Shown: positions 6,001 through 38,882 of the stretch, piece after piece | Layout of the letters: every line of letters begins with the position of its first letter | Position numbering within the stretch: the first letter of the stretch is position 1 | Virus record (IMG/VR): IMGVR_UViG_3300005758_000046 | Span: 1 to 59,506 of that record | Reading direction: 5' to 3' (one strand) | Length of the DNA: 59,506 nucleotides | DNA from: a virus | Taxonomy: Duplodnaviria; Caudoviricetes | The notes under the pieces: generated by a model | What the model was told of the DNA's origin: nothing | The model's database searches: none | Seen by the model: only the letters and a program-made list of their open reading frames with translations | Position numbers and translations under genes: made by a program

Positions 6001-9000
6001 AATGGCCAATTGCTGCTTTTTAAATATGCATATTCTGCTGGGCCTACATCACCTTGAGTCCACAAATTTTTAAATTTGTCAACATTGTATGACGATAATA
6101 AAAATTCAAATGGACTTTTTAATTTACCCATTGAATCAACTGGTATTATGTTTAGTAAATTTGGCCTAATTGCATTATTATTGATATAGGGATCGCCGTT
6201 ATTCCAAACATATCCGTTAGCTAAATCTTCCCATAAATAGGTATTATCACTAGTATACGGAGCTGCCCCGTATCTGTTATCCCACCAATTTGGTTTGTCA
6301 GTTAATCCTAACATTTCCCAAGGTGCGGTATCGGGGTTGCAGGTGTCATATAACCAAAGGTAAATTCCTCTCCAATTTCCTTTTTGTATTTTCTGATTAT
6401 TGAAAATAAAATTACTATCTCTATAGTTATAGGTTAGTGGTTTAGAAGAATCATAGAAATGCTCTTGATAATCAATACGATTTAGCCCAACCCAATTTAA
6501 AAATTGATAGTTATAAATTTCCTGATAGTTCTCATAACTTATACCTATATTTCTGAACTGACCCGGAGTTATTTCTTGCGGTTCTATTGGTAGTTTAGCT
6601 TTTACTTTTAAGTTATTATAAATTCTTAATTCAAATTCTAAAAGAACTCTATCTCTATAATCAGTCAATGATCCATTAATATAGTCGCCGTATAATTTAT
6701 TATACGAACCGTCATGACCTACAATGAAGTATGTGGGTGTTAAAAAGGTATTATCTAAAATAACCTTAGGCAGTGTGTTAGGATATAATCCTAACTTTGT
6801 TGGTGTGCTAGGTACATAACTGCCATAGGTCTGATCGTATTCTTTAATAACTATTAGATCGTTATTTTTTAAATTTTTAGTTATAGTTAATGAAGGTTCT
6901 ATATCCGAAATTATGTAATCTACACCTTTTACCAACTGAATTGTTTCTAAGTTTCCAAAAGAATTTCTAGTAGTTAAGTATACTAAAACGCTTTCGTAAT
7001 TAGCATTAGAAAAATCATACACCTTGCTTAGTGTGAACACATTGGTGCTTAATTCTAATTTAAACACATAAGAACTGGTTACTTTAGCATTTTTAGATGG
7101 TAACATATCAGTCCAAAAGAAGGGACTTGTGTTTAACTTAGGTTTAGTAATCCTATCTAAAACGTCATCTAAAATAAATGCAGGTGTCTGTAAAGAATTG
7201 TAATCGCTGTTAGTCAGTGTTTCGATTAACAATCCCTTAAACTTTGTATATTCATTCGAACTGTAATTTAATGCGTCAAAGAAATTATTATTTGTATTTC
7301 TTAAAAACGGAGCGCAGTTAATTAGTGATGCACTGTTTTGAATTATTTTTGTGCCATATGCAGTAACACTACCCAAATCTCTATAATTATTAGGCCCAAA
7401 TGCCGCACCTACTAAATTGGGTACATTGTTGCATATACTCTTATAATGACCTCGTATGTCTCCTAAGTTAATAGTAGACATGTTTTCATTAAAAGGATTA
7501 TGATCCAAATTGTTTGGTATTTGATAATATCCTATTTTAGAAATTTGATCACTATACAATAATATTGTTATTTGGTCATCTGCACTTAATGGTGAATCAA
7601 ACACAATAGTGGTTGTATTTTCAGTGAAGGTATATATGTATTCGTCTGTACTCAACCTAGTGTTATTAACGTACACCACTGTCACTGGCCATTTTGTTTC
7701 GCTTTGTGGTTTTACTTTTACATCACAAACTACTCTAGAATTCATAGTCTCCAAATATCTGATATCAAATACCTGATATTGAAAACTAGTATCAACCGCT
7801 GTTTGCCATCCTATTAATCTTTCGTAAGCGTTAATAGAAGTGTAATTGTGAACATAACCATCAGTTAAAGACTTTGATCTTACTTGAGAGTTATCCACAA
7901 AATTAAATTTTTGCGAATTTAACGTGACATTAAATTGAATATCGCTGTAATTTGTTGCCGAACTATACTTTATAGGAAATAGTAAAACTGGATCGTCTTG
8001 TCCTGTTCCGGTAGCGTACTCAAACAGAGTGCAACCTGAAAAATCAGAACCGGAATAAAAATCATTGTCGCTATAACTGATTCCATTATTATCGAATATA
8101 TCAAATAAAGGAGGTTGGTTTACTCTAGTTTTTTCCTGCGTTTGGTTCCAATTGGTTCCATCAAAATAGAAAGTTTTCCCTATATAATTTTCTCCGGCGC
8201 GGATAGCAGTTTGACTACCGGCTGCTACTTCTCCGTTAGGAGCTACTGTCAGCGTTATTATCGGGACTTCTGAATCAGATACCGCCTCAAAGGCCACTTT
8301 CCAAATTTTATTTTTAACATTTGGATTCAGATCTCCTGCAAATATAATAGTAGCGCCATCGTAAAGATAAGAGCTGCTACCATCTGGAGAGAACGCAGGT
8401 TGTCCAGCAACTTGTGTAAATGCATCAGTAACTGTGTAATTTATAAAAGCAGTGCTAGTAATTGAATATGTACCTGCATTAAACAACTTTAAGTTAGGAT
8501 AAAATTCTATAATAGGTCTTTTTGCTCTGTTATTTGGATTACCTAATGCCTCTGTAGTAATGGGACTAACTGTAGTATTTTCAATAACAGTGTTGAGAAC
8601 ATCTATATGGAACCATCTGTTTCCCCTACTCCATGCGTTTTTATTTAGGCTATTTCTAGCTATTAAAATGTAGTCCGGATCTTTGGGATAATACAAAGTA
8701 TCATCCCAAGGAAAACTATCATACGCAGTAGAATCATACGGAGTAGTCAGCGGTGTACCAAAAAGTTCCGGAGTTTGGAAATCTCTTACCGACAGTAATT
8801 GTATGCCTGTACCTACATTTTCAACATAGTACTGATCTGTTTTGTATTTTTCTGGTACCACGTTGCCGGAAAACTGGACTTTAAGTCCATTAGTAAATTT
8901 TATTCCATTTGGACTAACATATGATGTTTTATTTAAAATGTCATTTTCTACATCAATTATGACGCCAGCCGGCTCGTCTACCAATTTTATAATACCTACT

Positions 9001-23213: not shown

Positions 23214-24227
23214 ATGACTAACCTATTTAAAAAAGCAGCCGTATTTACCGACATTCATTTCGGTTTAAAAACAAATAGCCTACAACACAACCAAGACTGT
23301 GAGAAATTTGTAGATTGGTTCATTTCTGAGTCAAAAAAAGAAAATTGCGAAACTTGTTTCTTTTTGGGAGATTGGCATCATCATAGAGCCAGTATCAATC
23401 TACATACCTTACAGTTTAGCCTGCAAGCAATAGAAAAGCTTAGCAAAAATTTCGACAGAGTTTTTTTCATACCTGGCAATCACGATCTTTATTATCGTGA
23501 TCGTAGAGATATACATTCCGTAGAGTGGGCAAAGCATTTACCTAATATCACACTAGTAAATGATTGGCATATGGAAGGTGAAGTTGTAATTTCCCCGTGG
23601 TTGGTTCAGGATGATTATAAAAAATTACAAAAGCTTTCCGGAAAATATTTATTTGGTCATTTTGAATTGCCACACTTCTATATGAATGCTATGGTAGAGA
23701 TGCCCGATCACGGTGAGCTGAATGAAAACCACATGAAGGGATTCGATAAAGTATTCAGTGGTCATTTTCATAAGCGCCAAGCAAGAAAGAATATTTGGTA
23801 TATAGGAAATGCGTTCCCACATAATTACGCAGATGCAGGTGATGATGCACGTGGCATGATGATTTTAGAATGGGGCAATGAACCTGTATTCCGAGCTTGG
23901 CCTAGACAACCACTTTATAGAGTATATAAACTAAGCGAAGTTTTGGAAAATCCAGAAGGGTTGTTATTGATTGACAGCCACGTTAGAGTACATTTAGATA
24001 TTGATATCAGCTATGAAGAAGCGAATTTTATTCGGGAAACATTAATACCCGAACACAAATTGCGAGAAATGACACTTATTCCAATGAAGCTAGAGCAAGC
24101 AGAGCAACAGGGGTTAGACGGACTTAAGTTTGAATCGGTCGATCAAATTGTCATCGACCAAATAAACTCTATTGAATCTAACGCATTTGACAAAAAAATT
24201 CTGTTAGACATATATAACAACCTATGA
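23214..24227 (+). CDS. gp47: Recombination endonuclease subunit gp47 (Mre11/SbcD)
   Basis: Metallophosphoesterase motifs DIHFG, LGDW, GNHD, GHF, SGHFH. Confidence 0.92.
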   Translation: MTNLFKKAAVFTDIHFGLKTNSLQHNQDCEKFVDWFISESKKENCETCFFLGDWHHHRASINLHTLQFSLQAIEKLSKNFDRVFFIPGNHDLYYRDRRDIHSVEWAKHLPNITLVNDWHMEGEVVISPWLVQDDYKKLQKLSGKYLFGHFELPHFYMNAMVEMPDHGELNENHMKGFDKVFSGHFHKRQARKNIWYIGNAFPHNYADAGDDARGMMILEWGNEPVFRAWPRQPLYRVYKLSEVLENPEGLLLIDSHVRVHLDIDISYEEANFIRETLIPEHKLREMTLIPMKLEQAEQQGLDGLKFESVDQIVIDQINSIESNAFDKKILLDIYNNL

Positions 24228-25987
24228 TTCTATTAAAAAATATAACTCTTAGAAACTTTTTAAGCACCGGACAAGTCACTCAAGCAATTGATTTAAACAA
24301 GCAAGAACTAACGTTAATATTAGGTGAAAATCTTGATTTGGGAGGAGACGGTGCGCGAAATGGTACCGGAAAAACTACGTTAATTCAAGGACTTAGCTAT
24401 GCATTGTTCGGTGTGCCCATAAATGACATAAGAAAAGATAATTTGGTAAACAGGACCAACGGTAAGGGCATGTTGGTTACATTAGAGTTTTCAGTTAACG
24501 GCGTAGATTACAAAATAGAGCGCGGCAGAAAACCTAACATACTAAGATTTTATGTAAACAATGATTTACAGAAATCGCAAGATGACGCTCAGGGCGAAAA
24601 TAAAGAAACGCAACATGCGATAGAAAAAGTTATTCACATGAGCAGGGACATGTTTACTCATGTTGTTGCGTTAAACACTTATACTCAGCCGTTTTTAGCC
24701 TTAAAGTCCAACGAACAACGAGCTATCATAGAGCAACTTTTGGGTATTACGCTGCTATCTGAAAAAGCTGAATCTATCAAACTCCTAATAAAAGACACCA
24801 AAGATGAAATTCAACAAGAAGAATTTAGAATAAAAGCAGTTGAAGAAGCCAATAAAAGAGTTAAAGAGCAAATAGACGCTTTGAAGAGGCGACAAAAACT
24901 ATGGATTAATAAGCGTGATGAAGATGTTTCTAATCTAAAATCCAGTTATGACGAGTTAAGCAAAATTGATATTACCACTGAATTACTGTTGCACAAAAAG
25001 TTAACCGAACATGTACAACTTGTTAAGGATTACAATGATTTAAAAAAACTGTTAACTAGGTGCGAAATAGATTTAGACAAAGAAACTAAGTTAGTAGACA
25101 AACTCAAAAAAGAAATAGAGTCACTAAAGAAACATGAATGCTATGCATGTGGACAATCTTTACATGATGCAAAGCACGAAGAGGTGTTGCTTCTAAAAGA
25201 AAAATCGTTGAAGGATGCATCCTTACAGGTTATAACAACGGTAGGTGAAATGCAAGAATTGAATCTTGCATTAAAAACAATCGGGGAGCCAGGGCCAGCG
25301 CCTAAACCCTTTTACGATAAAGAAAGTGATGCAATCGAACACAAAAGCACGATGACTAACATAACACAAATGTTAGAAAGCAAATTAAAGGAAGTTGATC
25401 CGTATCACGAGCAAATTTCAGAAATGGAGAGTCAAGCCCTACAAGAAATCAGTTTTGATCAAATTAATAAGTTAACTAAAAAAATGGAGCATCAAAAATT
25501 TTTGCTAGACCTGCTAACTAGCAAAGATAGTTTTGTTCGTAAAAAAATTATTGATCAAAATCTGAGTTATCTAAATGCTAGATTGACACATTACTTAGAC
25601 AAAATTGGTTTACCTCACCAAGTTGTTTTCAAGAATGATTTGCAAGTGGAAATTACTGAACTGGGTCGAGAGTTAGATTTTGACAACTTATCTAGAGGTG
25701 AAAGAAATAGATTAATATTGGGGTTAAGTTTTGCTTTTAGGGATGTGTGGGAAAGTTTGTATACTTCTATTAACACATTATTCATTGATGAACTTATCGA
25801 TTCTGGTTTAGATACATTGGGTGTAGAAAACAGTATCGCTATATTAAAGGACATGAGTAGGCGCCGACAAAAATCTATTTGGTTAGTTTCACATAGAGAA
25901 GAATTGTCCGGTCGGGTACCTAGTGTGTTAAAAGTTATTAAAGAAAATGGATTTACCTCATATAATACTGCGGTGGATATCGAATGA
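24224..25987 (+). CDS. gp46: Recombination ATPase gp46 (Rad50/SbcC)
   Basis: Walker A RNGTGKTT, zinc hook CYAC, signature LSRGE, Walker B LFIDE, H-loop VSH. Confidence 0.93.
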   Translation: MILLKNITLRNFLSTGQVTQAIDLNKQELTLILGENLDLGGDGARNGTGKTTLIQGLSYALFGVPINDIRKDNLVNRTNGKGMLVTLEFSVNGVDYKIERGRKPNILRFYVNNDLQKSQDDAQGENKETQHAIEKVIHMSRDMFTHVVALNTYTQPFLALKSNEQRAIIEQLLGITLLSEKAESIKLLIKDTKDEIQQEEFRIKAVEEANKRVKEQIDALKRRQKLWINKRDEDVSNLKSSYDELSKIDITTELLLHKKLTEHVQLVKDYNDLKKLLTRCEIDLDKETKLVDKLKKEIESLKKHECYACGQSLHDAKHEEVLLLKEKSLKDASLQVITTVGEMQELNLALKTIGEPGPAPKPFYDKESDAIEHKSTMTNITQMLESKLKEVDPYHEQISEMESQALQEISFDQINKLTKKMEHQKFLLDLLTSKDSFVRKKIIDQNLSYLNARLTHYLDKIGLPHQVVFKNDLQVEITELGRELDFDNLSRGERNRLILGLSFAFRDVWESLYTSINTLFIDELIDSGLDTLGVENSIAILKDMSRRRQKSIWLVSHREELSGRVPSVLKVIKENGFTSYNTAVDIE

Positions 25988-26490
25988 GTACATTGTACTT
26001 GGACATGGACGGAGTAGTTGCAGATTTTGATGCCTATGCGTACCAAACACTAAGGATTGGTCCTTCAGAGGGTGTTTATCCTAGTAATGAATGGAGAAAA
26101 TTAAAAAGTAATCCTAGATTATATAGAGATTTACAAAAAACACCATATGCTGACGAACTTGTTTTCCAATGCAGTATTTTTGCAAAACGAAATAATTTTC
26201 AACTTAAGTTTTTAACTGCAATACCAAAAAATAACGACTTACCGTGGGCGTTTCATGATAAAGTTAAATGGGTAGAAAAAAACGGGTACGGTTCTATTCC
26301 AGTTATGTTCGGACCTTACAGCAAAGATAAACACATGCACTGTGTGCCCGGAGACATTCTTATAGATGACAGGACCAGTAATATTGATGAATGGAACAAA
26401 GCCGGTGGTTATGGAATACTACACAAGAATAGTTACGAAATCACATTAGAGAAATTATTTGCATATGAAAATACTATTAACCGGATATAA
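25984..26490 (+). CDS. HAD-family 5'(3')-deoxyribonucleotidase
   Basis: YLDMDGVVADF and ILIDD..NIDEW..AGG.GILH motifs. Confidence 0.8.
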   Translation: MSTLYLDMDGVVADFDAYAYQTLRIGPSEGVYPSNEWRKLKSNPRLYRDLQKTPYADELVFQCSIFAKRNNFQLKFLTAIPKNNDLPWAFHDKVKWVEKNGYGSIPVMFGPYSKDKHMHCVPGDILIDDRTSNIDEWNKAGGYGILHKNSYEITLEKLFAYENTINRI

Positions 26491-27292
26491 AGGATTTATT
26501 GGGCAAAATATGCTCAAATATATCAAAAACAATACTGATTGGGAAGTTGATACCTTTGAGTGGGGAGAGTACTGGCCCGGAGTATTTGGTTATGATTGGG
26601 TAATTCATTTAGGTGCTATAAGCAGTACAACAGAAAAAGACATAGAAAAGGTGTTGCATCAAAACTATGACTTTTCTAAAAAACTATTTGACGAATGCAA
26701 AACTTTTGGCGTTAACTTACAATATGCTAGTTCGGCTAGTGTATATGGACAACTTACAGAATTTACTGAGGACAGTAATTTAGATCCAATAACTCCATAT
26801 GCTTGGTCAAAATATCTTTTCGAAAGATATGCGTTAGATCACGAATCTGGTAACATTGTGCAGGGATTTAGATATTTTAATGTATACGGAGATCATGAAG
26901 ATCACAAAGGCAATCAAGCCAGTCCGGTGCATCAGTTTGTAAAGCAAGTTAAAGATACTGGAAAAATTAAAATATTTGACGATAGTGAAAATTATTTTAG
27001 AGATTTTATATGTGTCGAAGATGTATGTAGAATTCATGTAGAGTTTATCGAGCGTATTACTGATTCGGGTATTTGGAATTTAGGCACCGGTAAGGCAACA
27101 AGTTTTGCAAAAGTAGCTGATTATGTCATAAAAAATTACGGGGGAAAAATAAAGTACGTAATGATGCCCGACAATTTAAAAAGAAGCTACCAATATTATA
27201 CATGCAGTGACAATACTAAATTAGAAGACACTTTAGGGAAACAATATTGGATTTCAATAAAAGATTTTTTAAAAGATAAAACGAAAGCATAA
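26465..27292 (+). CDS. hldD: NAD-dependent epimerase, ADP-L-glycero-D-manno-heptose 6-epimerase-like
   Basis: GYKGFIG Rossmann motif, HLGAISSTTE, YASSASVYG, YAWSK, FRYFNVYG..E.HKG.QAS. Confidence 0.75.
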   Translation: MKILLTGYKGFIGQNMLKYIKNNTDWEVDTFEWGEYWPGVFGYDWVIHLGAISSTTEKDIEKVLHQNYDFSKKLFDECKTFGVNLQYASSASVYGQLTEFTEDSNLDPITPYAWSKYLFERYALDHESGNIVQGFRYFNVYGDHEDHKGNQASPVHQFVKQVKDTGKIKIFDDSENYFRDFICVEDVCRIHVEFIERITDSGIWNLGTGKATSFAKVADYVIKNYGGKIKYVMMPDNLKRSYQYYTCSDNTKLEDTLGKQYWISIKDFLKDKTKA

Positions 27293-27300
27293 GTAGTCAC

Positions 27301-27867
27301 ATGCCCAGCTCACAAAAAAATAAAGGATCCAGTTTTGAAAGAGAAGTTGCTAAATTTCTTTCGGATTTGTACGGAGAAAGTTTTATTAGAGCACCTGGTT
27401 CAGGTGCATATGTGGGCGGGGTTAATCAAAGCAGAAAGCAATTTTTACACGAGGGTCAAATACGTAGTTTTAAGGGAGACATTGTTCCAGGACAAAGTTT
27501 TTCTAAATTTAATGCGGAGTGTAAAAGTTATAAAGACTTTCCATTTCACCTCCTTCTTACGGGTGAAAGCAAACAGTTTGACCAATGGCTATCTCAAATG
27601 TTAGATGTGGCTGATGACGGCGACTTGAACATCCTATTCATGAAATTTAACCGAATAGGAAGATATGTAGCCGTACAGCCAAAGCTAACTTGGGTACTAG
27701 ACAATTATACTTTTTATTCTAGCGAAAAATACGGTGATTGGATAATCGCAGAATTTGACAGCTTTTTTAAATTCAACAAAGACTTAGTTAAAACTTATTC
27801 AGGCTCAACAGACACAAAGTCATCTTTTTCACAATTTACCACTTCAAATATACAATTAGACGGCTGA
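27301..27867 (+). CDS. Holliday junction resolvase-like PD-(D/E)xK nuclease
   Basis: KNKGSSFEREVA..R.PGSGA..GDIV..AECK (Hjc-like pattern). Confidence 0.75.
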   Translation: MPSSQKNKGSSFEREVAKFLSDLYGESFIRAPGSGAYVGGVNQSRKQFLHEGQIRSFKGDIVPGQSFSKFNAECKSYKDFPFHLLLTGESKQFDQWLSQMLDVADDGDLNILFMKFNRIGRYVAVQPKLTWVLDNYTFYSSEKYGDWIIAEFDSFFKFNKDLVKTYSGSTDTKSSFSQFTTSNIQLDG

Positions 27868-28212
27868 GTTGTCAGTCCTCCTTGAGAAAGTACGGGTAGT
27901 GCTGTGCTGACGGATCTGGAGTATGCATGTCAGTAATGACATGGAATGTCGAGAGGGCAATCTTGGATAGGGAACCCTCAATGAGTCTATATCTCACTCT
28001 GTTTTGCGGATATAGAACATGCGTTGCCGAAGAACTAAATTATAAAAGTTTAGTAGCTTCACTACAGTCCCATAATACTTACCGGGCAACCGACAGCGTA
28101 TAGCAACAAAAAGAGTTAGCTATTCGGGGAATAAACAGCAAATGGATGACGGGCATGGCAAGTTTCCAATTGGTAGTGCTGAATAGCACTACCATGGCTT
28201 CAAAGCGGCAAT
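27868..28212 (+). ncRNA. Candidate large structured non-coding RNA of unknown class
   Basis: ORF-free, richer in GC than its flanks, with many stems including G-U pairs and a GUAA tetraloop (see findings). Confidence 0.5.
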
Positions 28213-28252
28213 GTATTTAAAAACAAATAAAATTACTTGTTAATAACAATCC

Positions 28253-28312
28253 AATTCCGAACAATACGAACGAAGTGAGTATGTGAAGGAATTAGATGAA
28301 CGAAGTTCATCT
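28253..28312 (+). other. Two hairpins with C-GAA-G triloops, the first with tandem GA mismatches (ssDNA-type structure)
   Basis: AATTCC-GA-AC(A)ATAC-GA-AC-GAA-GT-GA-GTATGT-GA(A)-GGAATT and AGATGAAC-GAA-GTTCATCT. Confidence 0.55.
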
Positions 28313-28350
28313 TTACTGTTCAATTAAAGTTTCAATTAAATCAACCAAAG

Positions 28351-28587
28351 TTAGAAGAAAGGTAGTTTGGTATTCTTTGTTGTTTCTAAATTTTCTTCTA
28401 TAATTTTGCCTATGGCTTGCCGTTCATGCACACTCATGTTTAGTATATCTGTATAAGATATACCTCCCCTCATATACCAAGCCATTTTTATTGCTGTTTC
28501 TTTAATGTCTTGGCAATCTTTTTCCATTTCGTCTATCAACTTCTTGACTTCGTGAGGTTCGAGAGTAAGAAGTCTTAATCGAAAAAA
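28351..28587 (-). CDS. Baseplate hub/tail assembly chaperone extension (gp51-like), probably reached by -1 frameshift from the gp26-like gene
   Basis: The -1 frame is open from slippery T TTT TTC (28587-28581): FRLRLLTLEPHEVKKLIDEMEK..WYMRGGISYTDILNMSVHER. Confidence 0.65.
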   Translation of the reverse strand, partial: FFRLRLLTLEPHEVKKLIDEMEKDCQDIKETAIKMAWYMRGGISYTDILNMSVHERQAIGKIIEENLETTKNTKLPFF

Positions 28588-29402
28588 TCTGAGATGTTTA
28601 AATCAAAGGGCTGTTGATACTCGTGAGTACAGCTTTGGCATTTTATTTCTAAAGGTTTTATTTCCGTTTCTTGTTTTAGAGCAATTGATTTATCTCTAAT
28701 GAATTCGTACTCTTTTTTGGGAATGTTAAGCAAATACTCTTTAATAAATTCTCTATCTAAAACTAGATCGGTTGGAGTTTTTACATACTCTATCATCTCT
28801 AACGTTAGCTTCGATGCCAATTCGGTCATGTCCTTAACCAATCCACTGGTTTTAGTTTCTTTCTCTTTCTCATCAGTTGTGTCCTGAATACGTCTAAATG
28901 TCTGTTGCAATGAAAACTGCTCTTGACTGATTTTATTCAACGTTCTATAGGGAACAGATTTATACTTTATTGCTATATCAGAGTTAACTGGATGTAACTC
29001 GTTGTATTTTCCTGATTGTATAGAATTTAACATACCCACTAAGTCTACGTCATACTTGTGAGATTCACCACATTTTGGGCATACAGTATCTACTTCTGCT
29101 GTACTACCTTTAGTGGCAATTTTTATGGACAGTAGTAACGGGTCCAAATCTATTTGAGGTATCACCCATGGGTCTAATATATTAGGGGCACAACTACGTA
29201 TAAGTTCAACAACTGCAACACCGTTGAATAGTGCATCTGGGGTTCTAGCGGTTATTTCATCTAATGCAGTCATTGGATATATTGGTATTTCTCCGTTTTC
29301 GGGTAGGTTCAATGATCCTTCAGGATATCCCATGCCCTTACTAGGTAAGGAAAAATATAAAGCAGGTCTTCTAAAATAGTTACTTAACGGGTTGTTTAGC
29401 AT
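28575..29402 (-). CDS. gp26: Baseplate hub assembly chaperone, gp26-like
   Basis: RBS GGAG before ATG 29402; LPSKG..YPMTALDEI..DLDPLLLSIKIATKG, CPKC and CQSC zinc motifs, C-terminal DFFD. Confidence 0.72.
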   Translation of the reverse strand: MLNNPLSNYFRRPALYFSLPSKGMGYPEGSLNLPENGEIPIYPMTALDEITARTPDALFNGVAVVELIRSCAPNILDPWVIPQIDLDPLLLSIKIATKGSTAEVDTVCPKCGESHKYDVDLVGMLNSIQSGKYNELHPVNSDIAIKYKSVPYRTLNKISQEQFSLQQTFRRIQDTTDEKEKETKTSGLVKDMTELASKLTLEMIEYVKTPTDLVLDREFIKEYLLNIPKKEYEFIRDKSIALKQETEIKPLEIKCQSCTHEYQQPFDLNISDFFD

Positions 29403-29423
29403 GTTTTCTCCAAAAACAGTAGT

Positions 29424-29445
29424 CATAAATATAGATATATTTATA
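29424..29445. promoter_or_regulatory. Pair of late promoters for the tape measure gene (+, CATAAATA) and gp26-like gene (-, TATAAATA)
   Basis: CATAAATA at 29424-29431 (+) and TATAAATA at 29445-29438 (-) in a 52-nt divergent intergenic gap. Confidence 0.6.
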
Positions 29446-29454
29446 GGTAAAACT

Positions 29455-32178
29455 ATGTCCGAAATAAATACTGCCCAAATTAACGAAGAATTAGCCAAAT
29501 TGTCCGAAGCATTGCGTTCCGCTAGCGGTGGAATGTATCAGTCATTAGCAGAAGTTGAAAAAGAAGATTTAAAGACTCAGCGTAAAAAAAATGCACAGGA
29601 TTTTGTTGAAGCATTAAAACAAACATCCAAACAATTGGGTTCAGCCGGAGTGCAGTTTGTGCAAACTATGCATAGTTCTCAACAAGGTATGCACAAGTAT
29701 GCTGGAAGTATAACAGCCGCCGGATCAGCTATTTCAGACTTTGCTGGAAAATTTGGAATCTTAGGTAAAATTGTGGGCGGTGTTGCTACTGTTTTTACTA
29801 AACTTTTTACATCAGCACTAAAACAAAATGATGAGTTAATTAGTAGTTTTAATGAATTAAGCAGTTTAGGTTCATTAACTTCAGGGGGTATTCAAGAATT
29901 AAACAAGCAACTACTTTCTATTGGATTAACCTCTGAAACTGCTGCAACTTTTGCAAAAGTAATAAGCAGAGTAAATTCTGAATTAGCGGTGTTTGGTGTA
30001 GGTGCAAGCGAGGGTAGAAAAAAGTTAGTAGGAATTACCGAACCATTTTTTGCTTTAGGTAGCAAGTATGAATTTGAATTAGCTAGATTGGGTTATTCTA
30101 CCGATGAGATGCGTGAAGGTGTAGCATCTTACATATCAAGCCAAATAAAAATGGATCATGCACAAAAAAGATCCACTAGTGATTTAGCAAAAGAAGCACA
30201 AAAATATATGGTTACTCTAAAACAATTACAAGAGTTAACTGGGTTGAGTGCAGATGAACAACAAAAGGCAATTGAACAAGCGCAAGCAGATGCTAGGTTC
30301 AATATGATGTTGAGCACAATGGACAGAGAAGAGGCTGAAAATTTAAAACTATTAATGCCTATCTTGCGAGAATTTGGTCCTACAATTACTAAAGGTGTTC
30401 AAGAATTTTTATATAGCGGTGGGTCTATTGTTAGCGATGAAGTAGCAACAGTGTTTAGATCATTTCCTAACATTGGACAAGAATTGCTAAACGTTCAGAG
30501 AACCGGTGCAGAGGGAATAGCCAAATTTACTAAAAACTTTTCTTCCAGTATGATGGAAGTATTTGGTCCTAATGGCCCATTATACAGTAGTATAATGGTT
30601 AGTACCGATGCGTTTGACACACTAACCGGTGGGCATCAAGCAATGAATACGGCGATGAAGTTCAATCAAATGTCGTTGAAACAAGCAGTCGATGCCACTA
30701 AAAAGGCTAACGATCTTAAGGGTAAAGAAAACAAAGAAGTAGATGAAGCAGTAAAAGCAAGACAAAAAGAAAGATCATTAATTCAATCTTATCAAACTAT
30801 GCTACAAAAAGTTTCGGGATTTTTTGTTGCCATTATGGAAAAGGTTCAAACGGTGATGTTTCATTTTGGTAAGTTTCTAGCAACTATGATAGAAAAGTTT
30901 GGTCCAAAAATTGGCATTGATATTAAGCCCGGTGAATTAACTAATTTTTTTAAAACTCCGGAAGAATTATCAAAAGATTTAGCTGCACAAATGGAAAAAA
31001 CTTCCGCAATACAACAAAAAATAGATGCTAGACAGAGAGAACTTGAAGGCATAAAATCAGGAACTATAACAGGTGATACTTATAAAAAGTTAGCCAATGA
31101 AGCTAAAAAAGATATTCAAAAATTACAGGATGAAGCAATAATTTTTGCAGACAATCCATTGTATGATTTTGAAAAGGCACAAAAACAGCTAAAAGAATTA
31201 AAAAATGCTGAAAAAACCTATGCCGACTTGTCTAAGCAATCGTCAGAACAACAGTATGCCAGCAGAAAAGAAGCATTAGAACGAGAAATTAAATTATTAG
31301 AAGAACAAAAAAAGCAAGAAAAAGAAATAAGCGATATAGTAAACCAAAGAGTTTCACTTACCGACACTAAACGACTAGCTCCCAATGTTCAATACAGTAC
31401 TACCAGCATTGGCACAAGAGCCCCTGAAGAAGTGATTGCAAGTAGACAGTCTGCACAAAAAGAACTAGCAACATTAGGTGCAGGTAGAGAAAGTACAATA
31501 CTCAAGTCGTTGAACTTAAAATCACCCGAAAGTATAGCCGGCGGAAAAGCAGAGCCGCAAACTTTAGCAATGGCTGAAAAGATACAAAATAAATTTGCTG
31601 AATTGGGCAAAACGGTTAAATTTACTGCGTTAAATGATGCATTCCATAAACAGCAATATCCTAACAGCAAGCATACTATAGGCAAGGCGTTAGACTTTGC
31701 AATAAGTCCTGCTCCCGCTAATATAGAAGAAGCTAAAGTATATAAAGAAATATTAAAAGATTTAGGTGCTTACAAAGTATTGGATGAATATTTTGAAGAC
31801 AAAAATGAAAAAACTACGGCAGGTCATTTTCACGTAGAAGTAGCTAAATTTGGTGGTAAATTTTCAGGCCCCGAAATGGGCTATCCGGTTATGCTTCATG
31901 GAAAAGAAAGTGTTTGGCCTGAAAAAGAATTATCATCATTGTTAAATGAAGTCAAAAAATCTAGTCTAACACAATACAAAGAAGAGTTATTGGCGGAAGT
32001 AAAAAATCAAAATACTACGACACCAATGGTATCTGGGATAACCAATAATCAATCTTCTTTGAGTGATATGATAGGTAGATCATTTGATGATTTTGGTAGA
32101 AAGTTAGATGTAGTAATAGGTGTATTGGAAAGAACGCACAATGTTCAAGACGAATTATTAACATACACCAAAGCTTAA
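29455..32178 (+). CDS. Tail tape measure protein with C-terminal Zn-peptidase (M15-like) domain
   Basis: Long helical Ala/Gln/Lys-rich ORF next to the tail chaperone; SKHTIGKALDF..GHFHVE peptidase motif; GGKFSGP..GYPVMLHGKE tail motif. Confidence 0.7.
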   Translation: MSEINTAQINEELAKLSEALRSASGGMYQSLAEVEKEDLKTQRKKNAQDFVEALKQTSKQLGSAGVQFVQTMHSSQQGMHKYAGSITAAGSAISDFAGKFGILGKIVGGVATVFTKLFTSALKQNDELISSFNELSSLGSLTSGGIQELNKQLLSIGLTSETAATFAKVISRVNSELAVFGVGASEGRKKLVGITEPFFALGSKYEFELARLGYSTDEMREGVASYISSQIKMDHAQKRSTSDLAKEAQKYMVTLKQLQELTGLSADEQQKAIEQAQADARFNMMLSTMDREEAENLKLLMPILREFGPTITKGVQEFLYSGGSIVSDEVATVFRSFPNIGQELLNVQRTGAEGIAKFTKNFSSSMMEVFGPNGPLYSSIMVSTDAFDTLTGGHQAMNTAMKFNQMSLKQAVDATKKANDLKGKENKEVDEAVKARQKERSLIQSYQTMLQKVSGFFVAIMEKVQTVMFHFGKFLATMIEKFGPKIGIDIKPGELTNFFKTPEELSKDLAAQMEKTSAIQQKIDARQRELEGIKSGTITGDTYKKLANEAKKDIQKLQDEAIIFADNPLYDFEKAQKQLKELKNAEKTYADLSKQSSEQQYASRKEALEREIKLLEEQKKQEKEISDIVNQRVSLTDTKRLAPNVQYSTTSIGTRAPEEVIASRQSAQKELATLGAGRESTILKSLNLKSPESIAGGKAEPQTLAMAEKIQNKFAELGKTVKFTALNDAFHKQQYPNSKHTIGKALDFAISPAPANIEEAKVYKEILKDLGAYKVLDEYFEDKNEKTTAGHFHVEVAKFGGKFSGPEMGYPVMLHGKESVWPEKELSSLLNEVKKSSLTQYKEELLAEVKNQNTTTPMVSGITNNQSSLSDMIGRSFDDFGRKLDVVIGVLERTHNVQDELLTYTKA

Positions 32179-38874: not shown

Positions 38875-38882
38875 TATAAATA
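38875..38882 (+). promoter_or_regulatory. Late promoter for the endonuclease gene
   Basis: Exact TATAAATA 18 nt upstream of ATG 38901. Confidence 0.6.

Follow-up and report, generated by a model that had tools for sequence, protein, structure and literature searches.

The DNA studied here covers positions 1 to 59,506 of the IMG/VR virus record IMGVR_UViG_3300005758_000046 (Duplodnaviria; Caudoviricetes), and this whole stretch of 59,506 nucleotides (nt) is called the window below. Four plus-strand genes run up to position 27867, ending with a gene for a PD-(D/E)XK "resolvase-like" nuclease, and directly 3' of them lies a region of about 350 nt (27862-28212, plus strand) that is almost certainly a real structured RNA gene. 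It is present in one copy in the window (212.9 bits with R1, a covariance model of 214 core positions). The RNA belongs to a previously uncatalogued family of one clade of uncultivated T4-like jumbo phages. From the right, an open reading frame (ORF) of 62 amino acids (aa) and a gene for a T4 gp26-like baseplate hub protein converge on it, and between the nuclease gene and these convergent genes there are chance ORFs of 31-58 aa only. In segments of 200 nt, the guanine-plus-cytosine (GC) fraction is 0.44/0.44/0.42 across 27800-28199, versus 0.285-0.395 in the flanks. The cumulative GC skew dips slightly at the change of gene strand and has no large-scale switch.

An earlier note, made from the letters of the window, had described 27868..28212 as an ORF-free, GC-rich stretch that encodes a large structured phage RNA, read from the plus strand, undescribed so far and of no recognizable class. 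The analysis below bears out this description. The end at 28212 is retained, while the element starts about 6 nt earlier, at 27862, and is followed by a conserved pair of terminator-like hairpins at 28264-28312.

Noncoding status, folding and strand

The family provided 110 unique full-length core sequences, or 184 with flanks. In the 110 unique members, each plus-strand frame contains 6.4-7.9 stop codons, and the longest open stretch has a median of 62 aa compared with 60 aa in shuffled sequences. These sequences showed no three-base periodicity, the column entropy by codon phase being 0.77/0.78/0.72. A protein-coding gene or a small ORF was rejected on these grounds. The plus strand of the element folds with an energy of -112.3 kcal/mol (z = -3.75), which was reached by 0 of 100 shuffles. 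The minus strand gave z = -2.90, and one of 100 shuffles was as good.

In the widest alignment of relatives (A3, described below), G-U cells make up 6.4% and A-C cells 1.9%. Therefore, the plus-strand reading pairs better (89.4%) than the minus-strand reading (84.8%), and plus-strand polarity is favored. The earlier note had argued for this polarity from G-U pairs and a GUAA loop. On the one hand, the G-U argument stands. On the other hand, the GUAA loop is not universal, being replaced in some clades by other loops or by insertions of up to about 80 nt.

Covariation in relatives

RNAalifold, applied to 56 sequences, returned a structure of 61 pairs, and 40 of these change in a compensatory way. 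The model was then refined by eye and by a helix scan, which also yielded the pseudoknot described below. We scored the model on three sets of sequences. In A1 (56 sequences, 92 pairs), 94.8% of cells are paired, against 31-46% when the strands are slid, and 60 pairs show compensatory changes. For the core in A2 (106 sequences, 59 pairs) the corresponding values are 93.1%, 32-43% and 49 pairs. For A3, which holds 144 viral and metagenome sequences of less than 95% identity and covers 112 pairs, they are 89.4%, 33-44% and 88 pairs. In each of the three sets, 0 of 500 shuffles scored as high, and the covariation in A1, A2 and A3 rules out chance folding.

The structure was derived partly from the same sequences, so that the slid control is somewhat flattering. 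However, double changes in A3 occupy 2388 cells versus 797 in shuffles, and nearly all top pairs in an independent mutual-information ranking are pairs of the model. Accordingly, there is little doubt about the fold. The core helices are 96-100% paired in A3. The lower scores belong to three peripheral elements that vary, H0, Hc and the hairpin inside H7, all poorly aligned by MAFFT. Forty-six columns are invariant throughout the 144 sequences, and junction strands contain many of these columns.

Architecture of the RNA

The fold (Table 1) begins with a 5' hairpin, H0, which contains the nuclease stop codon (TGA, 27865-67). Of 96 unique sequences, 83 have a perfect stem of 6 base pairs (bp) that ends directly ahead of CUCC, and 93 have one of 4 bp or more; the hairpin takes 56 different sequences. 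In the gappy MAFFT alignment of A3, the H0 pairs are 67-85% paired, with compensatory change in five of six. The CUCC strand is sequestered with GGAG in helix Ha, where rare compensatory changes are seen in three of the four A3 pairs (for example CUCU/AGAG). A free anti-Shine-Dalgarno site at CCUCCUUGAG was rejected because of this pairing.

Table 1. Coordinates of the RNA, its structural elements and its neighbors in the window (% paired and compensatory pairs refer to A3)
Feature	Position	Strand	Remarks
SbcC-like gene	24224-25987	+	upstream neighbor
5'-nucleotidase gene	25984-26490	+	upstream neighbor
Nucleotide-sugar epimerase gene	26459-27292	+	upstream neighbor
PD-(D/E)XK "resolvase-like" nuclease gene	27301-27867	+	188 aa; Pfam PF24608, E = 3.4e-26; PHROG 244 "RusA-like Holliday junction resolvase"
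A-rich motif	27849-27856	+	TATACAAT in window, consensus (A)TAAAAAT(T); conservation 0.7-0.9, fixed 4-5 nt ahead of H0 (96 unique upstream sequences)
H0	27862-67/27872-77	+	GGCUGA / GUUG / UCAGUC; 5' hairpin over nuclease stop codon
Ha	27878-81/27918-21	+	CUCC / GGAG; encloses Hb; 99.8% paired
Hb	27886-88/27909-11 and 27890-95/27902-07	+	82.8% paired; 8/9 pairs compensatory
Hc	27926-43	+	peripheral hairpin; GUAA (GNRA) loop in window
H4	27947-51/28091-95	+	long-range helix closing four-way junction with H5, H6, H7 (domain 27947-28095); 98.9% paired
H5	27953-57/27975-79 and 27961-63/27971-73	+	100% paired
H6	27981-83/28018-20 and 27986-93/28009-16	+	99.1% paired; 11/11 pairs compensatory
PK1	27999-28004/28133-38	+	pseudoknot of 6 bp, H6 loop CUGUUU / AAACAG
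H7	28023-28/28085-90	+	96.1% paired; variable inner hairpin 28029-60
H8	28097-28107/28115-28126	+	A-rich loop; 92.4% paired; 10/11 pairs compensatory
Joining strand	28127-28152	+	GGGGAAU-[PK1 3' strand 28133-38]-CAAAUGGAUGACGG; columns nearly invariant
W1	28153-28161	+	first co-varying word (GCAUGGCAA)
H10	28171-80/28185-94	+	10-bp hairpin; near-invariant module 28171-28204 with trailing UGGCUUCAAA
W2	28205-28212	+	second co-varying word (GCGGCAAU); marks end of conserved core
A-rich linker	28213-28263	+	about 50 nt, poorly conserved
Hx	28264-28282	+	top GAACGAAGUGA (tandem G-A, 2 bp, GAA loop); 78% paired; 4/4 pairs compensatory
Hy	28294-28320 (hairpin 28294-28312)	+	AGAUGAAC-GAA-GUUCAUCU, then T-rich tail; 96.2% paired; 8/8 pairs compensatory
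62-aa ORF	28351-28539	-	converges on RNA from right
T4 gp26-like baseplate hub gene	28575-29498	-	PF12322; converges from right

All seven pairs of Hc are compensatory and its inner 4 bp are 95.9% paired in 56 sequences; the value is 61-79% in A3, owing to insertions or other loops in the wider set. Members that differ at the Hc position are L122, L030, L015, L186, L277, L279, L264 and L147: in some clades Hc is replaced by insertions of about 40-80 nt, and in one divergent clade by a short UGUGUUACACA-type hairpin. Such behavior is typical of a variable element at the periphery. H5 carries an internal loop (27959-27960) that reads AA in 99 of 144 sequences and UC in 43, both bases switching jointly with nothing else changing.

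H4 closes a four-way junction, and within its last branch, H7, the single strands ACUAC (28061-65) and UA..G..AACCG (28080-92) are invariant. A further contact joins 28077-78 to 28095-96. Position 28095 covaries both with 27947 (136 standard pairs in 144 sequences) and with 28078 (142 of 144), and 28077-28096 is C-G in 135 of 144, a pattern that points to a base triple or to another small pseudoknot. The pseudoknot PK1 links the loop of H6 to the strand behind H8. It is paired in 100% of cells in 56 sequences and in 97.6% in 144, with compensatory changes in five of six pairs, and is among the top mutual-information pairs. The conserved strand 3' of H8 ends in GGAUGACGG. In H10, the outer pair 28171-94 is UA in 133 of 144 sequences, pair 28172-93 is GC in 142 and AU in 1, pair 28173-92 is GC in all 144, and the innermost pair 28180-85 varies (UA 113, AU 24, UG 5). 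The strand that trails H10 is near-identical throughout the 144 sequences.

Six of the seven stems listed in the earlier note recur here with support from the relatives: CATGTCA-GTAA-TGACATG at 27926-43, GAGGG/CCCTC at 27953/27975, TCTATATC/GATATAGA at 27986/28009, GTTGCC/GGCAAC at 28023/28085 with its variable inner hairpin, ATAGC/GCTAT as part of a longer covarying hairpin (28097-28126), and the 10-bp hairpin at 28171-94. Its first stem, TTGTCAGT (27869) with GCTGACGG (27906), had to be given up. The 5' half of that stem is the loop and 3' strand of H0 (GGCTGA 27862-67 / TCAGTC 27872-77), and its 3' half belongs to hairpin Hb (27886-27911). H0 over the stop codon, H4 closing the four-way junction, PK1 and the downstream terminator pair were additions to that list.

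Ends of the transcript

Upstream of the A-rich motif, nothing further is conserved in the 96 unique upstream sequences. The motif takes in the final codons of the nuclease gene or its stop codon. In the window it contains TACAAT, a sigma-70-like -10 element (27851-56), as part of the match TTCACA-17-TACAAT at 27828-27856; sigma-70-like matches number six in the region versus 6.4 expected from shuffles. The RNA may be co-transcribed with the recombination operon, as the earlier note proposed, or the motif could be a promoter of the RNA or an RNase E-type processing site. A T4-type late promoter driving the RNA was also considered and rejected, since the box TATAAATA stands before the hub gene (29445, minus strand) and at 38875, not before the RNA.

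At the other end, sequence conservation stops 3-4 nt past W2, and two conserved hairpins follow the linker. The inner pair of Hx (28270-76) is AU in 88 and GC in 52 sequences. Hx is T-rich on the minus-strand side, and for this reason it is read as a probable terminator of the convergent late genes. Hy is the sole terminator-like site found by a consensus scan of 26900-28800. It has the stable hairpin, the T-rich run and the conserved structure of an intrinsic terminator, with an imperfect T run (TTACTGTT). Under a strict rule, 55 of 94 unique downstream sequences have a hairpin with a T-rich tail, at a median distance of 81 nt past the core. Judging from these features, Hy is the probable intrinsic terminator of the RNA transcript. 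Hx and Hy (28268-28278, 28299-28307) share an AC-GAA-GU top, which is GCGAAGC in some relatives; this recalls the unusually stable GCGAAGC mini-hairpin known from single-stranded DNA.

Distribution and synteny

Viral contigs contain 371 relatives of the nuclease protein. The best 80 of these 371, which were fetched with contigs of up to 360 kilobases (kb), are 69-84% identical to it. The element stands directly behind the nuclease gene in 80 of these 80 relatives, at 70-93% nucleotide identity; one copy is truncated by the contig end, two are split by insertions, and 58 are distinct. Together with the 88 compensatory pairs of A3, this provides the conservation and covariation that the earlier note had proposed to look for. 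We also scanned with a degenerate motif taken from the invariant core, without reference to the nuclease protein. In viral contigs this gave at least 84 true copies by nhmmer (84 of 120 among the matches listed), the other 36 being chance matches that R1 also rejects, and in metagenomes at least 115 (115 of 120 among the matches listed). The family is larger than the copies counted from these scans.

The position of the RNA is fixed. Where the flank is at least 650 nt, the nuclease gene is upstream at 148 of 149 loci from viral contigs and at 82 of 82 from metagenomes; where it is at least 1800 nt, the hub gene converges downstream at 143 of 143 and 78 of 78 loci. The viral-contig count includes the window two times, under the names "window" and L081, and some of the contigs came in by both routes. 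The sole exception is L186, the most divergent member, in which the nuclease gene is missing upstream and the RNA is retained, indicating that the RNA is independent of the neighboring gene. In the place of the nuclease, L186 carries a 147-aa ORF (6718-7161, plus strand) with a GIY-YIG-like N-terminus, giving it the look of a homing endonuclease, and two further small ORFs.

A blastn search of the element against 50,697 phage records gave no match. Among named phages, the nuclease similarity is highest (44-45% and 40%) in Salicola phage SCTP-2, Pseudomonas phage PA5oct and Sinorhizobium phage Phosso, and in all three a coding sequence stands directly 3' of the nuclease gene. With R1, the whole records of SCTP-2 and PA5oct gave 0 matches each, and that of Phosso a single match of 10.7 bits (E = 0.685). 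Among prokaryote genomes, one for each of 185,579 species, the motif scan found three stretches, none of which R1 confirmed; this search was at pattern level, and diverged copies would escape it.

A duplicated word at the 3' end

The words W1 and W2, of 8-10 nt each, form a direct repeat that brackets the near-invariant hairpin H10 and its trailing strand. Positions 28153 and 28205 stood out in the mutual-information ranking as a pair whose identities change in step (GG 76, UU 33, CC 11), and the two words stay alike through about a dozen forms across clades. As W1/W2 these forms include GC(AU)GGCAA / GCGGCAA, UC../UC.. and CC../CC.., as well as GGUAAUGA / GGUAAUAA, AGUAAUGA / AGUAAUAA and GAUAAUGA / GAUAAUAA; the forms ..AGCAA, ..GACA.., GCAAGUA, UUGCAUGAU and GUUGAA occur in both words. 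To our knowledge, there is no precedent for such a duplicated co-varying word.

Covariation by identity is what would be expected if both words pair with one partner. The variant words have no complement inside the RNA, and no complement of W1/W2 was found within the 4-10 kb flank of each locus. The canonical word can pair with the 5' strand of H7 (28024) in 66 of 141 sequences; we did not take this strand as the partner because it covaries with 28085-90 instead. A trial helix H9 (28154-57/28193-96) was rejected, having no compensatory pair and failing in variant clades, and its position 28193 belongs to H10. A search of the window for trans complements of the conserved single strands returned only their own sites or chance-level matches.

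Comparison with known RNAs

The family is uncatalogued and fits no Rfam 15 family. With the 4227 models of Rfam 15, no match at gathering score was obtained in the window of 59.5 kb or in 13 diverse members (99,544 bases). At E<=10, the segment 27700-28400 gave three matches of 20, 17 and 14.9 bits, where the cut-offs are 60, 50 and 91, none of them to an intron, RNase P, transfer-messenger RNA (tmRNA) or large-RNA family. ARAGORN found no transfer RNA (tRNA) or tmRNA gene in the window, and no bacterial or archaeal RNase P RNA model matched at gathering score or at E<=10. These results agree with the failure of the earlier note to recognize tRNA, tmRNA, RNase P or intron hallmarks. HEARO and the omega RNA of IscB-TnpB likewise had no Rfam match, and the neighbors of the RNA are PF24608 and PF12322 proteins, not IscB or TnpB.

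No description of the RNA at 27862-28212 was found in a search of full-text literature. A survey of structured RNAs from 2023 used the same source, the IMG/VR intergenic regions, and covariation-type evidence, and it reports 8,495 candidates of 29-151 bases with a mean of 67 (PMC10690425). Candidates of the size given there are too short for the whole RNA of 350 nt, while fragments of it could figure in the supplementary tables of that survey.

The RNA resembles GOLLD (RF01998) and ROOL (RF03087) in that these are large, multi-helix, pseudoknotted phage noncoding RNAs found by comparative genomics, whose job is unknown. GOLLD and ROOL are 600-800 nt long and often adjoin tRNA genes in phages or prophages. 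In contrast, the core here is about 350 nt, the window of 59.5 kb has 0 tRNAs, the neighbors are nuclease and baseplate hub genes, and the RNA keeps a fixed syntenic position in one phage clade. Neither RF01998 nor RF03087 matched at gathering score or at E<=10. GOLLD and ROOL are reported to be able to form RNA-only assemblies (10.1101/2024.12.08.627333).

A likeness to the group I intron (RF00028) is seen in the GNRA-capped peripheral hairpin followed by a long-range helix around stacked hairpins, in the hairpin right after the 3' strand of that helix, and in the pseudoknot that crosses it. The strand order is like the group I order, P3 ... P7 ... P3' - P8 - P7'. However, the RNA starts at the nuclease stop codon and has no downstream exon, being followed by the A-rich linker, the terminators and the convergent genes. 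The helix equivalent to P7 varies freely, and no conserved G-binding helix or terminal G was recognized. Moreover, the 5' strand of the pseudoknot lies in a hairpin loop, and an extra domain, H7, is placed between it and the long-range helix. There was no RF00028 match at E<=10, where it should be considered that the single group I model of Rfam is insensitive to some intron subgroups. No clear match to a tested defining feature of GOLLD/ROOL or of the group I intron was seen.

Convergent late genes

The box TATAAATA has two exact matches in the window, at 29438-29445 (minus strand) and at 38875-38882 (plus strand). The first sits 16 nt before an ATG, within the 5' end of the listed hub ORF, which starts with TTG at 29498. 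The true start of the hub gene is probably this ATG behind the late promoter box, not the TTG at 29498. A slippery run, TTTTTTC, lies on the minus strand (28587-28581) 4 nt ahead of the stop of the hub ORF, and the 62-aa ORF comes next. On the opposite strand, a 928-aa ORF (29392-32178, plus strand) overlaps the beginning of the hub gene; neither Pfam nor PHROG gave a match for it. To judge from where it lies and from its coiled-coil-like composition, it may encode a protein that determines the length of the tail or hub.

Proposed function and alternatives

The RNA is most likely a stand-alone, stable, trans-acting structured RNA. As to its mechanism, we tentatively favor a scaffold or guide-like action in trans, the duplicated word addressing an external nucleic acid. 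The RNA would be made as its own unit of about 450 nt, starting at, or being cut just after, the A-rich motif at 27849-56 and ending at the terminator hairpin at 28294-28312. Its tertiary fold would provide the scaffold on which a protein partner is held. The 3' module would display the same word of 8-10 nt twice, with the invariant hairpin between the copies, and both words would pair with an external nucleic acid that evolves along with them. A bolder version, which we regard as doubtful, sees in the RNA a novel type of programmable guide or scaffold. In this case, the conserved core of 300 nt would hold a protein or be catalytic, and H10 would present the word twice to a matching, co-evolving site in the phage or the host, giving each clade its own "address".

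Several points weigh against the proposal of a trans-acting scaffold or guide. The candidate promoter draws on a single -10-like motif whose matches occur at shuffle level, and in many relatives the A-rich motif partly overlaps the nuclease stop codon. The near-absolute synteny with the nuclease would fit a role in cis as well, and the synteny counts are of loci, not phages, with duplicates included. The pairing of W1 and W2 in trans is argued from the absence of a partner in cis, and the 59.5-kb window has just one complement of the 9-nt W1 word (17521), a match at chance level.

One alternative is a cis-acting role. The RNA could be the 3' untranslated region of the recombination operon, shielding the SbcC-nuclease messenger RNA from 3' exonucleases or insulating it from the convergent late tail genes. 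It lies directly after the last plus-strand gene and before a back-to-back pair of hairpins at the convergent junction, and H0 contains the stop codon; these features and the synteny speak for this role. However, stems would be enough for a stabilizer or insulator, which has no need of 46 bases invariant in 144 sequences, of two tertiary contacts or of a pair of co-varying words. The RNA also persists without the nuclease gene in L186, and the conserved motif just ahead of H0 suggests a separate 5' end, so that we judge this explanation unlikely. We hold a ribozyme, processing itself or acting on another RNA, to be just as unlikely. The size, the long-range helix with an H-type pseudoknot, the GNRA-capped peripheral hairpin and the invariant single-stranded bases (ACUAC, AACCG, GCGUU, CCGA) would all suit a ribozyme, as would the order H4 5' ... 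PK1 5' ... H4 3' ... H8 ... PK1 3', which parallels P3/P7/P8 of group I. The duplicated word might then mark two equivalent substrate or cleavage sites, recognized by one guide. Yet no known ribozyme family matched even at E<=10, the RNA has no internal guide complementary to the words, and the pseudoknot helix varies freely, with no conserved active-site sequence.

A switch of two states would explain the identity covariation in another way, as the product of competition between W1 and W2 for one strand. In such a riboswitch-like device, the sensing of a ligand or protein would control read-through of the terminator into antisense of the late genes. The downstream terminator and the ability of the canonical word to pair with H7 would agree with it, but a shared partner should covary with the words and none does, and the variant words lack any complement in the RNA. 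The terminator stands about 80 nt past W2, across an unconserved linker. We consider a switch quite improbable. Very improbable in our view is an RNA of a replication origin, hybridized to an AT-rich unwinding region to prime DNA synthesis. In T4, transcripts hybridized at the unwinding regions of oriF and oriG prime DNA synthesis in this way, and baseplate hub genes lie near oriF(uvsY). The unconserved A/T-rich linker of about 50 nt after the core recalls such a region. However, a primer needs no conserved tertiary fold, and the locus is a convergent junction with terminators where the GC skew has no large-scale switch. We argue for a scaffold or ribozyme over a simple R-loop primer because of the many invariant junction bases, the two pseudoknot-type contacts and the strict fold. 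Finally, the direct repeats of 8-10 nt around a hairpin-bearing segment of about 45 nt might be taken for a target-site duplication, with the H10 module (28162-28204) as the relic of a small inserted element. This can hardly be credited, considering that a duplication made once would drift while these copies stay alike through about a dozen forms, that the supposed insert is the most conserved part of the RNA, and that the window has no second copy of the module.

Taken as a stand-alone structured RNA, the element described here can be tested directly with the fold model, boundaries and alignments now available. Large RNAs with intricate conserved tertiary folds are rare, and those whose role was found have usually proved to be ribozymes or cores of RNA-protein machines. 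Among the uncultivated jumbo phages of lakes and other waters, hundreds keep this RNA at one locus, and it is conserved to the same degree as the neighboring proteins.

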